From IMG/VR virus record IMGVR_UViG_2778261448_000005: a DNA stretch of 36,585 nt. One strand, written 5' to 3'. The notes under the pieces are model-generated. The model saw only the letters and a program-made list of their open reading frames with translations, did no database searches and was not told the origin of the DNA. The DNA is from a virus (Duplodnaviria; Heunggongvirae; Uroviricota; Caudoviricetes). This document shows, piece by piece, positions 1 through 36,585 of the stretch; positions within the stretch are counted from its first letter, which is position 1, and each line of letters opens with the position of its first letter. The translations under genes were made by a program, and so were the position numbers.

Positions 1-1020
1 TTAATCCCCCGTGGACACTGCGTGGACACTCACGCCACCTTTCAGCGGATTAAGGGCCACCGCATCCTGCAGGTAATCCGATGCAAAATGTGCATATGCC
101 ATTGTTTGCTGAATGGTTGCGTGGCCAAGAATCTTCTGAAGCGCAATAATGTTTCCTCCGTTCATCACAAAATGGCTGGCGAACGTATGCCGCAGCACAT
201 GTGCAGCCTGGCCTTTTGGCAAATCGGGCTTAACTCTTTTCAGCGCCAAGCAGAATTCCCGGTACTTCACCTCAAACAAGCCGCCTGTTTCTCTGGTTTT
301 GATCGCCTCACAAACTGCCTGCGAAATTGGCACTGTTCTCTTTCGGCCATTTTTGGTTTCAAGAAACGTTACACGGTTATGAACTATCTGTTCACCACGA
401 AGCTTACAGGCTTCACTCCAGCGCGCCCCCGTGCTTAAACACAAAAGCGCAACACGCCAGTAATCGCCCTCCAGTGTATCGAGCAATAACGCCACTTCCT
501 TCTGGGACAGGAAAGCCATTTCTCGTGGAGATACATAAAGAATAGAAATTCCCCTTACCGGATGTTCTGCATCCCAGAGGCCTATTTTCTTCAGTACGGT
601 AAACATTCCGGATAACCGATTCATGTATCTGTTAGCAGATGACGGTTTCAATCCATCAGCTATCTTTTGAGAACGCCACGCGATAATTTTTAGCTTATCA
701 AGATCCACAGCCTGCATATCAGCGCCAAGCTCATTGATTATGTTGCGCAGTTGTTTTCGGTCTTCTTCCGCCTTACGCCTGTGCTGGCCGTGATACATCC
801 ACCACAACTCAAGCAAATCATTTAGCGTTCGACGATCACGGTAGCCCTGTATATATTCCCGCTTTTCAGCGTTCGCCATGATGTAGCGTTCAGTGGCCAC
901 CGCTACCGATTTTTTGTCAAATACCTTACGCACGCGCTTTCCCTTGCGTCCGTTCGGCCTGATGTCCAGCAAATAACGACCATCTTCGAGCTTCTTAATC
1001 GACATTGCGAAGCCCTCCAA
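1..1020 (-). CDS. int: tyrosine integrase
   Basis: 339-aa ORF. C-terminal region carries the tyrosine-recombinase catalytic box (HVLRHTFASH ... MAYAHF). Sits at the prophage edge next to the repressor, as in P2. Confidence 0.9.
   Translation of the reverse strand: MEGFAMSIKKLEDGRYLLDIRPNGRKGKRVRKVFDKKSVAVATERYIMANAEKREYIQGYRDRRTLNDLLELWWMYHGQHRRKAEEDRKQLRNIINELGADMQAVDLDKLKIIAWRSQKIADGLKPSSANRYMNRLSGMFTVLKKIGLWDAEHPVRGISILYVSPREMAFLSQKEVALLLDTLEGDYWRVALLCLSTGARWSEACKLRGEQIVHNRVTFLETKNGRKRTVPISQAVCEAIKTRETGGLFEVKYREFCLALKRVKPDLPKGQAAHVLRHTFASHFVMNGGNIIALQKILGHATIQQTMAYAHFASDYLQDAVALNPLKGGVSVHAVSTGD
11..29. repeat. candidate attL core, direct repeat of 35405-35423
   Basis: GTGGaCACTGCGTGGACAC here versus GTGGtCACTGCGTGGACAC at 35405-35423 (14-bp exact core, 19 bp with one mismatch). 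Lies within the last codons of int. Confidence 0.4.
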
Positions 1021-31927: not shown

Positions 31928-32084
31928 AGCTTCAGCCCCTTGTATCCGTTAAATGATTCGGCAACAATCATCACCCACCACGCGCGTAATCTCACCCCTG
32001 CGCCGTTCTCCCGACCCGGCGACAACAAAAAGCAGTAACCCCCTCCGCACGCACATGCGACCATGCCGCACAGGGAGGGAACAG

Positions 32085-33194
32085 ATGACCGACACCACCA
32101 TGCAATTGCTCAGTCAGGGCACAGACCCCGTGAAAATGCCGGATTTTGATATTCTCGCGGAGGGTAAAACGCTGTCAGGCGTGGCAGAGCGCCTGATGAG
32201 CCTGTCACTGACCGACAACCGGGGATTTGAGGCGGACCAGCTCACCATCACGCTGGATGATGCGGATGGTCAGTTGCAGCTACCGCCACGGGGCGCGCGC
32301 CTGACGGTTCTCATTGGCTGGAAAGGAGAACCGCTGACAGAAAAAGGCACTTACATTGTTGATGAAATCGCTCACGAAGGACCGCCGGACAGGCTGACTG
32401 TTTCAGCCAGAAGCGCAGATTTTCGGGATGAATTTAACGTTAAACGTGAGGTGTCCTGGCATGATGTGACCGTTGAGCGTGTGGTATCCGCCATCGCTCA
32501 TCGGTATGGTCTGAAACCACAAATCAGCGAAATGCTGATGGATATCGAAATCGACCACGCCGACCAGACCGAAGAAAGCGACATGTCCTTCCTTACGCGC
32601 ATGGCGGAAATGCTGGGCGCAATCACCACGGTAAAAAGCGGCAATCTGTTATTCATCATGCCAGGTGGTGGCGTGAACGCACAGGGCCAGCCGTTGCCCT
32701 CGTTCGCCATTACACGCAGCAGCGGCGATCGCCATCAGTTCCGTATTGCTGACCGCGAGGCGTATACGGGGGTACGCGCCTACTGGCTTGATCTTAATTA
32801 CGGGGAAAAGAAAAAAGTCAGCGTGAAACGCCGCAAACCACCAAAACCCCAAAAGGAGAAAAGCAGCAGCCGTGAAGGTGATTATATGGAAGGCGCGGAA
32901 GGCAATGTGTTTGTGTTACGCAAGACCTATCAGAACGAACAGGCAGCAAGACGCGCAGCGGCGGCAAAGTGGCAGCAACTACAACGCGGAGCCGCATCAT
33001 TCTCCATCACGCTGGCGCGTGGACGTGCAGAACTCTACCCCGAAATGCATGGTACGGTAACAGGATTTAAAAGCGAGATTGATAATCAGGACTGGATCAT
33101 TGCAAAAGCCGAGCACACTATTGATAACAGCGGCTTTACCACGCAGCTTGAGCTTGAGGCAAAAATCCCGGAATGGATAGCGGAAACAGAGTGA
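32085..33194 (+). CDS. D: tail protein D (late control D family); start uncertain
   Basis: ORF-track frame 31953-33194, likely start at the internal Met (MTDTTMQ) near 32085. About 369 aa versus P2 gpD 387 aa. Directly upstream of ogr. Confidence 0.8.
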   Translation: MTDTTMQLLSQGTDPVKMPDFDILAEGKTLSGVAERLMSLSLTDNRGFEADQLTITLDDADGQLQLPPRGARLTVLIGWKGEPLTEKGTYIVDEIAHEGPPDRLTVSARSADFRDEFNVKREVSWHDVTVERVVSAIAHRYGLKPQISEMLMDIEIDHADQTEESDMSFLTRMAEMLGAITTVKSGNLLFIMPGGGVNAQGQPLPSFAITRSSGDRHQFRIADREAYTGVRAYWLDLNYGEKKKVSVKRRKPPKPQKEKSSSREGDYMEGAEGNVFVLRKTYQNEQAARRAAAAKWQQLQRGAASFSITLARGRAELYPEMHGTVTGFKSEIDNQDWIIAKAEHTIDNSGFTTQLELEAKIPEWIAETE

Positions 33195-33236
33195 GCAACT
33201 TAGAATAGCGGCAGCACCACGTTAAGGGAGGTCGCT

Positions 33237-33497: not shown

Positions 33498-33687
33498 CAG
33501 GCAGAATTGCCGGAGTAACAAAAAAGCGATAGATTACGCGCGGGTGCCTTTCGGCTGATGGTCGGAGGGAATACCCGATGGCCGGATGTGGAAAGGCCCC
33601 GGAAAACACTTTTGTTTAACCGAGGCCCTAACCGTCTACCCTAAGCAAGTGATAGGTTAGCGCCTCCCCGAAAAAGGAGCAAGCGCT

Positions 33688-33828
33688 ATGTCGCAAAAAT
33701 CGCTTACGGCCATCACGTTCTGCGTGACGGTAATCCTCATCATCTGGATGCTGCACGGTTCGCTGTGTGAAATACGGATGAGCTTCTGGGGAGCGGAGTT
33801 TGCGGCGTTCTTACAGTGTAAGCAGTAA
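33688..33828 (+). CDS. Hok/Gef-family type I toxin, 46 aa
   Basis: Not in the ORF track (under 60 aa). Translation MSQKSLTAITFCVTVILIIWMLHGSLCEIRMSFWGAEFAAFLQCKQ: N-terminal TM helix plus the conserved SLCEIR and AAF blocks. AAGGAG RBS upstream. Confidence 0.55.
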   Translation: MSQKSLTAITFCVTVILIIWMLHGSLCEIRMSFWGAEFAAFLQCKQ

Positions 33829-33837
33829 GGAAACCGC

Positions 33838-33859
33838 GACGGGGGAGTAATCCCCCGTC
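33838..33859 (+). terminator. stable GC-rich hairpin at the 3-prime end of the hok-like gene
   Basis: GACGGGGG-loop-CCCCCGTC, 9-bp stem. No clear U-run, so a terminator role is uncertain. Confidence 0.35.
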
Positions 33860-34090
33860 AATCGGTTGCCAGGGTAAGGTCGATAAGGCACCCTATCTCA
33901 CAGCTCTAAATGCCAAAATTCCATGAAACTGTGGGATTTTTGCATCACATACTGATACAGACCAGCCCTTCTATATGCCTCACTCTATACCAGCTAATCA
34001 ATTGACACTTATCAATAAAAATAAATCTGATAAAATCAAAATGTTTTGTAACAAATATCAACTCGTATTAATCCAAAGGAGGCGGATTAC

Positions 34091-34423
34091 ATGGCATTAA
34101 TCAAATGTCCTGAATGCCAGAAAGAGGTGAGCGATTCAGCATTGTATTGCCCTGCTTGTGGTAAACAACTGCAAAAACTTAAGCGTTCATTTTTTGGACG
34201 GATCATTAAGTGGGTTTTTATATTATTTAATATTTTTATGATCTATACGCTTTTAGTTGGACTAGGAGGCACTAGTGAAATAATAAATAATGCCACATCC
34301 GATGCCGAAAAAGCCGGTGCAGTTATTGGTACAGGCTTAGGTTTAATTACCATTGGAAGCTTATGGGTTATTGGCGATATCATTATCGGAATTTTAGTAT
34401 TTCTTACTAAACCAAAGGGATAA
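34091..34423 (+). CDS. zinc-ribbon membrane protein, AT-rich cargo
   Basis: N-terminal CPECQ ... CPACG zinc ribbon followed by two hydrophobic helices. GGAGG RBS. Low GC. Confidence 0.5.
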   Translation: MALIKCPECQKEVSDSALYCPACGKQLQKLKRSFFGRIIKWVFILFNIFMIYTLLVGLGGTSEIINNATSDAEKAGAVIGTGLGLITIGSLWVIGDIIIGILVFLTKPKG

Positions 34424-34427
34424 TAAA

Positions 34428-35321
34428 ATGAAAAATATAATTTTTTCTATAGGTGCATCATTTATATCAATTAGTGTACTGCCTGTTCAAGCAGCAACTG
34501 AACATAAGAACTTCAATGCAGTACTCCAGTGCCGAGCAATAGAAAATAATAAAGACAGACTTTCTTGTTACGATAAGTCAATACAACCGACTCGAACGAA
34601 AGTTGCTGAAAAATTCGAAAGCAGAGATCAATGCCCTGATGAGAAAGATGATGATAGACGTTTATCTTGTTATGATCGTTTCTTTTCTCCAACATTTACT
34701 CCATCTGTAAACTCAAAATCTAAAACGGAAAAGCCAGTAACAACAGAGGCTCAGCAACCAAATCTTTCTGAGATATCTAAATGTCGTGCAGAAAATGATA
34801 AAGAAGCCAGACTAAACTGCTACGATAAACTATTCCCACAGGATAAAATCGCTCAAGCTGAATCAAAATTAGAGAAAGCCACAGATGTAGGAAAATGGCA
34901 CACATCCATTACTACATCGCCAATTGATGATTCGAAAAATGTAATTTTATCGTTAGAAAGTGATGATTATATCAGAACTCCATTTGGAGAAGCGGTTACT
35001 CCTACTCTTTTTATAGCTTGCCGAGAAAAGAAAACCGAAGTATTTCTTAGTTGGGATGTATATTTAGGCCTTGAACAAACCAGCATGCTTTATCGCCTTG
35101 ATAAACAGAAAGCAGTTGAGCGAAACTGGCTAGTATCTACAGATACAAAGGCTGTTTTTTATAAAGGTAATGACATTGATTTCATCCGAAAACTAGCCAA
35201 CTCAAGCAAAATGTATACAAAAATAACGCCTTATAATGAGAGCCCCGTAAGTGCAACTTTCAATTTAAACGGCCTGTCAAACGCGCTAAAACCGCTTCAA
35301 GCTGCTTGTAACTGGAAATAG
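34428..35321 (+). CDS. secreted protein with three Cys-x(n)-RLSCYD repeats, AT-rich cargo
   Basis: Signal peptide (MKNIIFSIGASFISISVLPVQA). Three repeats (CRAIENNKDRLSCYDK, CPDEKDDDRRLSCYDR, CRAENDKEARLNCYDK), then a roughly 150-aa C-terminal domain. Low GC. Confidence 0.5.
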   Translation: MKNIIFSIGASFISISVLPVQAATEHKNFNAVLQCRAIENNKDRLSCYDKSIQPTRTKVAEKFESRDQCPDEKDDDRRLSCYDRFFSPTFTPSVNSKSKTEKPVTTEAQQPNLSEISKCRAENDKEARLNCYDKLFPQDKIAQAESKLEKATDVGKWHTSITTSPIDDSKNVILSLESDDYIRTPFGEAVTPTLFIACREKKTEVFLSWDVYLGLEQTSMLYRLDKQKAVERNWLVSTDTKAVFYKGNDIDFIRKLANSSKMYTKITPYNESPVSATFNLNGLSNALKPLQAACNWK

Positions 35322-35350
35322 TATTAAATCATGTGGCTTAGCCACAATCA

Positions 35351-35392
35351 CAGATAACACAAAGCCCGTGAAAACGGGCTTTGTGTTATCTG
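35351..35392. repeat. perfect 18-bp-stem palindrome, terminator or att-arm element
   Basis: CAGATAACACAAAGCCCG-TGAAAA-CGGGCTTTGTGTTATCTG, just downstream of the cargo gene and 12 bp before the candidate attR core. Confidence 0.5.
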
Positions 35393-35404
35393 TAACTCGA
35401 AAAT

Positions 35405-35423
35405 GTGGTCACTGCGTGGACAC
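35405..35423. repeat. candidate attR core, direct repeat of 11-29
   Basis: GTGGtCACTGCGTGGACAC, matching the copy inside the int 3-prime end. Confidence 0.4.
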
Positions 35424-35589
35424 GCGCTGACATAAATCCTTTTACATCAATAAATTAAGTCATCATTTTTTTCATCAACAAGGATTTTCACGTTTGTGTT
35501 ACCTGTATGAGACGAGAGTTAACCGGACAAGTGTGCCATAATCTCGCGGCCAGGCATACTTGCGAAGATTTCAGGTATAAGGATACGTA

Positions 35590-36585
35590 ATGATACAACC
35601 TATTTCCGGCCCTCCTCCTGGGCAACCACCAGGTCAGGGAGATAACCTGCCGTCTGGCGCGGGCAATCAGCCTTTATCCAGTCAGCAACGTACTTCGCTG
35701 GAAAGCTTAATGACGAAAGTGACCTCACTGACGCAACAGCAAAGAGCAGAACTGTGGGCGGGTATCAGGCACGATATTGGTCTGTCGGGAGATTCACCGC
35801 TGCTTTCGCGTCACTTCCCTGCCGCTGAGCATAATCTGGCGCAACGTCTGCTGGCCGCGCAAAAAAGCCATTCTGCCCGCCAGCTTTTAGCGCAATTAGG
35901 GGAGTATTTACGTCTGGGGAATAATCGTCAGGCGGTCACGGATTATATCCGTCATAACTTTGGTCAGACGCCGCTGAATCAGCTCTCACCGGAGCAATTA
36001 AAAACCATTCTCACCCTGTTGCAGGAAGGGAAGATGGTTATTCCGCAACCACAGCAGCGCGAGGCGACCGACCGTCCTTTATTACCGGCGGAGCACAATG
36101 CGCTAAAACAGCTGGTGACCAAACTTGCGGCGGCAACGGGGGAACCCAGCAAACAGATCTGGCAATCGATGCTGGAACTTTCCGGGGCGAAAGATGGCGA
36201 GTTAATTCCAGCGAAACTGTTTAACCATCTGGTGACCTGGCTACAGGCGCGTCAGACGCTAAGCCAGCAAAATACGCCGACGCTGGAATCACTACAGATG
36301 ACGCTAAAACAACCTTTAGATGCCAGTGAACTGGCGGCGTTATCGGCATATATCCAGCAAAAATATGGTCTTTCTGCGCAATCATCGCTTTCTTCTGCCC
36401 AGGCCGAGGATATTCTTAATCAGCTTTATCAACGGCGGGTTAAAGGGATTGATCCGCGTGTTATGCAACCGCTGCTTAATCCTTTTCCACCGATGATGGA
36501 CACGTTGCAAAATATGGCAACGCGTCCCGCGCTGTGGATACTGTTAGTCGCGATTATCCTGATGCTGGTCTGGCTGGTTCGTTAA
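35590..36585 (+). CDS. flk: flagellar regulator Flk-like protein, host chromosome
   Basis: 331 aa with a Pro/Gly/Gln-rich N-terminus (MIQPISGPPPGQPPGQGD) and a single C-terminal membrane anchor (ALWILLVAIILMLVWLVR), the architecture I recall for enterobacterial Flk. GC and codon usage differ from the AT-rich cargo. Confidence 0.6.
   Translation: MIQPISGPPPGQPPGQGDNLPSGAGNQPLSSQQRTSLESLMTKVTSLTQQQRAELWAGIRHDIGLSGDSPLLSRHFPAAEHNLAQRLLAAQKSHSARQLLAQLGEYLRLGNNRQAVTDYIRHNFGQTPLNQLSPEQLKTILTLLQEGKMVIPQPQQREATDRPLLPAEHNALKQLVTKLAAATGEPSKQIWQSMLELSGAKDGELIPAKLFNHLVTWLQARQTLSQQNTPTLESLQMTLKQPLDASELAALSAYIQQKYGLSAQSSLSSAQAEDILNQLYQRRVKGIDPRVMQPLLNPFPPMMDTLQNMATRPALWILLVAIILMLVWLVR

Follow-up and report, generated by a model that had tools for sequence, protein, structure and literature searches.

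What is the role of the two AT-rich genes found where a P2-like prophage ends, and do they belong to the phage at all? We examined this for a 36,585-nucleotide stretch of DNA from a member of the Caudoviricetes (IMG/VR record IMGVR_UViG_2778261448_000005; hereafter the window), which carries two adjacent genes close to its right end. Gene 1 encodes a zinc-ribbon membrane protein (protein 1), and gene 2 encodes an exported protein (protein 2) related to VasI/TagO of type VI secretion systems (T6SS). By its sequence, the pair is a self-contained moron adjoining the attP of PhiSM/P88-like (P2-like) temperate phages. Our analysis favours an envelope role for the pair in conflict between genetic elements, with superinfection exclusion as the simplest form of such a role. 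We put the probability that the pair is an envelope superinfection-exclusion module at about 40%.

We observed that gene 1 and gene 2 are real genes and not chance open reading frames (ORFs), because their proteins have 60 and 92 homologue clusters, respectively, and because dN/dS relative to the orthologues in phage P88_4B11 is 0.39 for gene 1 and 0.14 for gene 2. Relative to Klebsiella phage 3LV2017 the synonymous sites are saturated, and the proteins are still 64–72% identical. The pair is evidently under purifying selection. A preliminary description, made from the sequence alone, had reported two co-oriented ORFs 4 bp apart with a GC content far below that of the phage backbone and of flk, and the coordinates and base composition agree with this. 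The two genes lie on the same strand, the junction between them reads TAA TAA A ATG, and a Shine-Dalgarno-like sequence precedes each. Their GC content is 0.36, compared to 0.524 for window positions 1–33900 and 0.523 for flk.

We next consider protein 2, whose family membership frames every reading of the locus. The Pfam VasI model (PF11319) matches it with 88.8 bits against a cut-off of 26.5, aligning residues 118–296 to model positions 1–184 in three stretches owing to the repeats described below. The protein is 26% identical over 195 residues to an E. coli T6SS VasI. Superposing its structure on IalB (3dtd) revealed an IalB-like fold. Protein 2 is a divergent VasI/TagO/IalB-fold protein. 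Gene 2 carries the PGAP label ‘T6SS-associated protein TagO’, and ORF1 of phage PhiSM has been listed as ‘T6SS VasI family protein, virulence’ cargo (PMC6456863). The ‘unknown function’ given in the preliminary description thus understates what family, label and earlier listing already say.

The modelled layout of protein 2 comprises three Cys-stapled helical repeats, disordered linkers and an IalB-fold β-sandwich at residues ~155–297. These follow a hydrophobic N-terminal leader that ends VQA/A. The signal peptide, the triple repeat and the C-terminal domain had all been noted before, with the repeat written as C-x(8-9)-RL(S/N)CYD(K/R). We found exactly three units, and the spacing is eight residues throughout (C-x8-RL[SN]CYD[KR]). 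Likewise, the earlier wording ‘secreted or periplasmic’ holds for export to the periplasm and not for secretion beyond it. Repeat 3 aligns to the start of the Pfam and TIGR VasI models, and its residues C119, R128, L129, C131 and D133 do not vary across 44 homologues. Repeat 2 is missing from one-repeat homologues and present in those with two or three. In the top 150 representatives of the domain, three repeats occurred in the protein 2 cluster alone. The C-terminal domain itself matched 3,606 representative clusters (50% identity) at E ≤ 1e-3. A search of PDB chain sequences with the profiles of both families returned nothing under E 0.09, and a search of viral folds in BFVD returned uncharacterised phage proteins only. 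Elsewhere in the family, cytochrome c (CxxCH) is fused to a VasI-like β-sandwich in three relatives (P0165, P0166 and P0190), and TonB_C/TolA_C is fused to it in two others.

Protein 1 carries the motif CPEC-x10-CPAC, with cysteines C6, C9, C20 and C23, and matches Pfam Zn_Ribbon_1 (PF13240) with 31.8 bits against a cut-off of 25. Across 27 homologues C6, C20 and C23 never vary, and at least 90% of them retain C9. The AlphaFold2 (AF2) model, with a mean predicted local distance difference test (pLDDT) score of 78, shows a small β-ribbon followed by long helices at residues 34–66 and 71–105. A hydropathy scan supports both helices. These results bear out the zinc ribbon and two transmembrane helices proposed earlier for the first protein. 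The model places protein 1 in the inner membrane, with a C4 zinc ribbon (residues 4–27) on the cytoplasmic side and a two-helix transmembrane hairpin, both ends of which are predicted to be cytoplasmic, with a short periplasmic tip. It matches phrog_6586 at 1.7e-41. The family is small, with a mean column identity of 66%, and was found only in Enterobacterales and Pasteurellaceae. Two further identities were tried and rejected. The cell-division protein DrpB (YedR) gave 20.8 bits with NF038392 against a cut-off of 50 (E 3.6e-4), which is too weak; hhalign against E. coli DrpB gave a probability of 17% (E 0.0015), and PF28000 was recorded as weak on several gene 1 homologues. T4 Imm gave an hhalign probability of 0.5% and no Pfam PF14373 match.

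Do the two proteins act together? All close gene 2 homologues that could be placed lie after gpD–ogr at the right end of P2-like prophages, which occupy four chromosomal sites (pdxB/flk, cpxP/fieF, ytfP/tamB and copA). Most of these homologues are preceded by a 110-residue zinc-ribbon gene, and across loci the stop and start of the two genes are 4 bp apart or overlap. The same slot is occupied by versions with one, two or three repeats. We also observed the two halves as a single chain. A zinc ribbon–transmembrane–VasI fusion (P0052) is encoded by a P2-like prophage beside copA, and further fusions of this kind are L038 (Desulfobulbaceae), P0171, P0213 and P0281 (the same as L050). In another E. 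coli prophage lineage a VasI-like gene lies beside a gene for a protein with a zinc ribbon and a TM2 domain. The ribbon of that protein aligns with the gene 1 ribbon (hhalign probability 90%), but the membrane portions of the two are not related. What recurs, as predicted for these proteins, is a zinc ribbon on the cytoplasmic side, an anchor in the membrane and a VasI domain in the periplasm. Since zinc ribbon–transmembrane–VasI fusions recur in distant lineages, the two proteins probably form one functional unit, and the earlier proposal of a membrane partner for a periplasmic factor is strengthened.

The pair lies inside a PhiSM/P88-like (Peduoviridae) prophage. The window is P2-like; the int stop codon falls at base 1, flk starts at 35590, and gpD, ogr and a hok/sok-like locus lie directly upstream of the pair. 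The cargo region shares 99% identity with the deposited genome of PhiSM, and in the P88_4B11 phage genome the pair is placed between ogr/hok and int. Identity to E. coli K-12 starts at window position 35469 and identity to P88_4B11 stops at 35489. The 17-bp core between these limits (Table 1) is the reverse complement of the PhiSM attP/attB core ATCCTTGTTGATGAAAA, mapped experimentally to the first codons of pdxB in this Citrobacter/E. coli phage (PMC6456863). The preliminary description had proposed attR at 35405–35423 (GTGGTCACTGCGTGGACAC). We rejected this site: relative to the junction it falls on the phage side, and it recurs at window positions 11–29 within the 3′ end of int. Its broader claim, that both genes lie inside the prophage as cargo, stands with the true core downstream of them. 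The pdxB–flk gap of prophage-free K-12 is just 98 bp, P88_4B11 carries the pair, and of the 237 E. coli genomes found to hold the pair, 235 also hold the gpD–ogr–hok backbone alongside it. Conservation of the two genes next to flk in strains lacking a prophage would have marked them as host genes; no such arrangement was found in E. coli, and elsewhere we found single members with no adjacent prophage (L027/L028, Pantoea, Haemophilus).

To what extent is the pair a fixed part of the phage? We surveyed 5,426 complete E. coli genomes and matched the gpD–ogr–hok backbone in 1,556 of them. The pair lay beside the backbone in 235 of the 1,556. In most backbone genomes the match ends at ~33903, with host DNA resuming no more than a few hundred bases further on. 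Other cargo can occupy the same interval, for example a RES-family gene or two hypothetical genes. In strain EC476 (NZ_AP027419.1, H1/H85) an IS1 insertion lies within the cargo region of a locus that is otherwise 100% identical.

The pair also appears to carry its own signals. A sigma-70-type promoter is predicted upstream of gene 1, with an overlapping TTGACA at 34002–34007 near the −35 element. We built an alignment of the sequence preceding gene 1 at 10 loci in five genera (E. coli, Klebsiella, Raoultella, Enterobacter and Brenneria). The −35 (TTGTCA/TTATCA) and the extended −10 ((T/C)GATAAAAT) are near-invariant in this alignment and the flanks are divergent. In most of the loci the predicted promoter directly follows the ogr/hok terminator. 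A box just beyond the −10, AAAATGTTTTGTAACAAAT, holds a 5-1-5 palindrome, TTTGT-A-ACAAA (34045–34055), and its retention across genera suggests that a regulator binds there. An FNR-like site, TTGAC-N4-ATCAA at 34002–34015, is not kept in the other loci and was dropped. At the other end, our scan for a canonical intrinsic terminator after gene 2 found none; it found a strong hairpin without a T-run. This hairpin (35350–35393) has a predicted RNA folding energy of −43.4 kcal/mol (z −9.8), and its 20-bp stem is held by compensatory substitutions in P88_4B11. Together with the smaller hairpin before it, it probably separates the cargo from attP, acting as terminator or insulator. Rfam searches gave only a sub-threshold sok match upstream and meaningless miRNA matches on the hairpin. 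The predicted promoter and hairpin, the atypical GC content (0.36 vs 0.52) and the variable presence (235/1,556) are the marks on which we call the pair a moron.

How might such a unit act? In our model of superinfection exclusion, the pair would be transcribed from its own sigma-70 promoter, probably in the lysogen, and the two proteins would work together in the envelope, presumably through physical interaction. The β-sandwich of protein 2 would hang on the three disulfide-stapled helical repeats with their flexible linkers, and the zinc-ribbon partner would hold this periplasmic domain at the inner membrane. The domain could there intercept or block an incoming injection apparatus before the cytoplasmic membrane is crossed. 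Candidates for this apparatus are the tip of a phage tail or the route of DNA entry, and perhaps also a tailocin or T6SS spike.

The relatives of protein 2 point in this direction. We scanned 48 of them, 47 of which are longer than 260 residues, for fused domains. In one relative, P0176, a T4 Imm-type superinfection-immunity domain (PF14373, 66.8 bits) is fused to the VasI-like domain, and its gene adjoins one for a CI/LexA-type repressor. A VasI-like gene stands alone immediately downstream of a repressor in Brucella phage BiPBO1 and Klebsiella phage ST11-VIM1phi8.1. Within three genes of 30 distant relatives we found Abi_alpha, GmrSD, Mrr with ResIII, type I and IIG restriction-modification, CARF and integrase genes.

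Several observations weigh against exclusion. The Imm fusion is one case among the 48 long relatives, and the other fusions (cytochrome c, TonB_C/TolA_C, PG_binding_1, SH3 and YfiO/TPR) indicate the periplasm only. The neighbour families come from scans of 143 neighbours, as aggregate tallies not counted per locus. Guilt by association is weak here, because variable islands and prophage immunity regions hold many kinds of cargo. Neither protein matched a PADLOC-DB v2 defence model at E ≤ 1, and protein 1 is not homologous to Imm by hhalign. The functional data on the wider family all concern Vibrio cholerae VasI, which supports killing by the attacker's own T6SS and is not obviously shielding (PMC3166118). 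In the literature searched, the phage pair came up only in the PhiSM cargo listing (PMC6456863), and no study of its function was found. Finally, each gene is also found alone. Gene 1 stands alone between cueR and copA in Pantoea and also in Haemophilus paracuniculus. Phytobacter and Izhakiella have gene 2 by itself, flanked by cpxP and fieF. We take the lone copies in Pantoea, Phytobacter and Izhakiella to be remnants of decayed prophages, since their positions are P2-like attachment sites. The lone zinc-ribbon–transmembrane gene between cueR and copA (L019) occurs in many Pantoea genomes, in one of which a P2-like prophage (int, cox) is integrated alongside. It looks like what is left of an older prophage end, one that kept its attachment site usable.

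A bolder form of the exclusion model, which we regard as speculative and rather unlikely, would make the VasI/IalB-fold domain a general periplasmic ‘injection interceptor’ and the pair a two-component exclusion or anti-contractile-injection system. If true, a repeat stalk that can vary in length would carry a shield in the periplasm, with the zinc-ribbon protein as its membrane anchor. The same activity would explain the canonical T6SS VasI, for example through handling of the spike or tube in the periplasm.

The best-surviving alternative, possible and on balance doubtful, is that the pair serves envelope physiology and not conflict. A DrpB-like hairpin and a periplasmic scaffold would then form a general fitness moron acting on cell division, on the interface of peptidoglycan and outer membrane, or on the stress tolerance of the lysogen. 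The fusions of relatives to TonB_C/TolA_C, PG_binding_1, SH3 and YfiO/TPR fit this idea, as does the retention of single genes outside prophages in Pantoea, Haemophilus, Phytobacter and Izhakiella. The transmembrane resemblance to DrpB bears on it in both directions. Its E values (3.6e-4 for NF038392, 0.0015 for hhalign, with a weak PF28000 signal) speak for it, whereas 20.8 of the required 50 bits and an hhalign probability of 17% speak against it. So does the strong tie of the family to temperate phages and variable islands, which is more typical of conflict genes.

The reading implied by the database label and by the PhiSM paper (PMC6456863) is one of lysogenic conversion, in which an extra VasI/TagO would boost the type VI killing of the lysogen as T6SS accessory or virulence cargo. 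The Pfam match above cut-off, the listing of PhiSM ORF1 as a VasI-family virulence protein and the architecture shared with T6SS VasI (Cys motif, β domain, C-terminal C-x-W, 26% identity) all suggest it. In V. cholerae, moreover, VasI is needed for efficient killing and not for Hcp secretion (PMC3166118). However, protein 2 reached just 75.9 bits with the TIGR03360 VasI equivalog model, where 124.2 are required. Genuine VasI from E. coli EDL933 scored 257.4 bits, compared to 35–57 for four other phage-clade members, or 35–76 for all those tested. The close homologues that we examined lie at the ends of P2-like prophages, at prophage-free attachment sites or in variable islands, and we saw none in a T6SS cluster. 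Among the 143 neighbours of distant relatives, T6SS families were not recurrent. The partner of gene 2 encodes a zinc-ribbon membrane protein, and no such gene stands beside vasI in the E. coli T6SS cluster examined. We consider this explanation unlikely. The ‘T6SS-associated/virulence’ label on gene 2 falls short of the equivalog threshold, does not fit the genomic context, and is probably an over-annotation.

Least probable of all is a role in the phage life cycle with no benefit to the lysogen (penetration by its own tail, lysis timing, or blocking the re-adsorption of progeny to lysing cells), for although the pair occurs in the functional, inducible phages PhiSM, P88_4B11 and 3LV2017, and IalB/VasI-fold proteins also occur in the virulent T4-like phages RB16, KP15 and Aeromonas phage 65.2, the pair is missing from most prophages with the same backbone and thus dispensable, has a foreign GC content, and lies outside the late operons, after the ogr/hok terminators, with a sigma-70-type promoter predicted as its own.

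Superinfection exclusion in the envelope remains our preferred reading. Three findings appear to be new as far as the searched literature shows. The first is a phage-borne, non-T6SS VasI subfamily distinct from the T6SS one. The second is the zinc-ribbon/VasI module itself, which recurs both as neighbours and as fusions, and the third is its link to Imm and to positions beside repressors. VasI/TagO and IalB are widespread envelope proteins, with ~3,600 domain clusters at 50% identity, and prophages that carry the T6SS/virulence label number in the hundreds across E. coli, Klebsiella and Citrobacter. The Imm fusion and the repeated adjacency to repressors turn the locus into a concrete, cheaply testable hypothesis. 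Should exclusion prove wrong, an ordinary prophage moron would remain.

We also made several observations on the surroundings of the pair. At attR the start of pdxB is severed (35469–35500, minus strand); it reads GTG AAA ATC CTT GTT GAT GAA ..., continues into phage DNA and meets a stop after ~14 codons. A phage-borne promoter with a TTG start has been proposed to restore pdxB at attL (PMC6456863), and the attL of this prophage lies outside the window. We found no tRNA gene in the window that could serve as integration target. Paired GTGGWCAC motifs at 11–29, in the last codons of int, and at 35405–35423 flank attP. In the light of P2 attP, we read both pairs as probable integrase arm-type sites, one on each arm of attP. 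Between ogr and the cargo, window positions 33542–33828 hold a hok/sok-like type I toxin-antitoxin locus. It consists of a 46-residue Hok/Gef ORF at 33688–33828 (Pfam 30.1 bits) and an Rfam sok match at 33542–33701 (43 bits, short of the gathering threshold, 59). Beyond the Hok/Gef ORF, at 33837–33860, lies a strong terminator-like hairpin. The mechanically called gpD ORF (31953–33194) has 413 residues, compared to 369–384 annotated in related phages, and the true start is probably ~30–45 codons further in. In related P2-like prophages (L009, L062 and L063) a second cargo slot between gpD and ogr holds PIN-domain, YecA-family or alpha/beta-hydrolase genes. The corresponding slot of the window (about 33195–33236) is empty.

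Table 1 Features of the gene pair and its flanks, in window coordinates.
Feature	Position	Strand	Sequence or residues	Basis and remarks
AT-rich 5′ boundary and leader of cargo module	33904..34090	+		Backbone match ends at ~33903 in about 1,300 E. coli genomes; GC falls
Predicted sigma-70-type promoter	34009..34036	+	−35 TTATCA (34009–34014); extended −10 TGATAAAAT (34028–34036)	Consensus scan
Conserved box, candidate operator	34038..34056	+	AAAATGTTTTGTAACAAAT	Just 3′ of the −10; kept in 8/10 aligned loci
Shine-Dalgarno of gene 1	34075..34082	+	AAAGGAGG	Read off the sequence
Gene 1	34091..34423	+	110 aa	ORF; predicted inner-membrane zinc-ribbon protein
Gene 2	34428..35321	+	297 aa	ORF; exported VasI/TagO-family protein
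Predicted signal peptide of gene 2 product			aa 1–22	
Cys repeat 1	34530..34577	+	CRAIENNKDRLSCYDK, aa 35–50	Regular expression on translation; helix-turn-helix in AF2 model
Cys repeat 2	34632..34679	+	CPDEKDDDRRLSCYDR, aa 69–84	Regular expression on translation
Cys repeat 3	34782..34829	+	CRAENDKEARLNCYDK, aa 119–134	Copy common to all family members
C-terminal β-sandwich domain	34890..35318	+	Conserved C198, C294	AF2 pLDDT 83–95
Two hairpins 3′ of gene 2 stop	35332..35393	+	Small, 35332–35346; 20-bp stem, 35350–35393	
Probable integrase arm-type sites, P arm	35405..35423	.	GTGGTCAC-TGC-GTGGACAC	Motif pair also at 11–29; kept in P88_4B11
True att core at attR	35469..35485	.	TTTTCATCAACAAGGAT, 17 bp	In first codons of pdxB; K-12/phage identity boundaries

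How does the pair compare with known systems? For protein 1, the nearest known shape is that of DrpB (YedR), a two-helix inner-membrane hairpin of similar size that shares the short motifs RSxxGK...W.F, AG..G and TRPK/R. DrpB lacks a zinc ribbon, and the similarity is under all thresholds. IalB (invasion-associated locus B) of Bartonella (PF06776; PDB 3dtd) shares the fold of protein 2 at marginal sequence similarity, with 20.5 bits against a cut-off of 22.1 and 19% identity, but has neither the Cys-repeat stalk nor a known zinc-ribbon partner.

T6SS VasI/TagO (PF11319, TIGR03360; VCA0118 of V. cholerae and vasI of EDL933) is homologous to protein 2 and shares with it the signal peptide, the C-x8-RLxCYD motif, the β-sandwich and a C-terminal Cys-x-Trp. 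The two differ in that identity is 26%, protein 2 scores under the equivalog cut-off and its Cys module is triplicated. They also differ in setting, in that EDL933 vasI sits between tssH and tssA, whereas gene 2 sits in a prophage beside a zinc-ribbon gene. A 2026 review lists the function of VasI/TagO as unknown (PMC13584744), and in V. cholerae VasI is dispensable for the secretion of Hcp and VgrG and required for efficient killing (PMC3166118).

Functionally, the pair could act like T4 Imm and Sp, P22 SieA and HK97 gp15, which are small phage proteins of the inner membrane or periplasm that stop entry. Neither window protein is homologous to Imm, but a relative of gene 2 is fused to Imm_superinfect beside a phage repressor. 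In its organization the pair resembles the morons of temperate phages, such as old, tin and Z/fun of P2. The proteins differ, and so does the slot, which for the pair lies between hok and attP and for P2 accessory genes is the TO and Z/fun regions. What the pair shares with these morons is an independent promoter–genes–hairpin unit as predicted here, a GC content foreign to the backbone, patchy presence and a place beside attP where one module borders on another.

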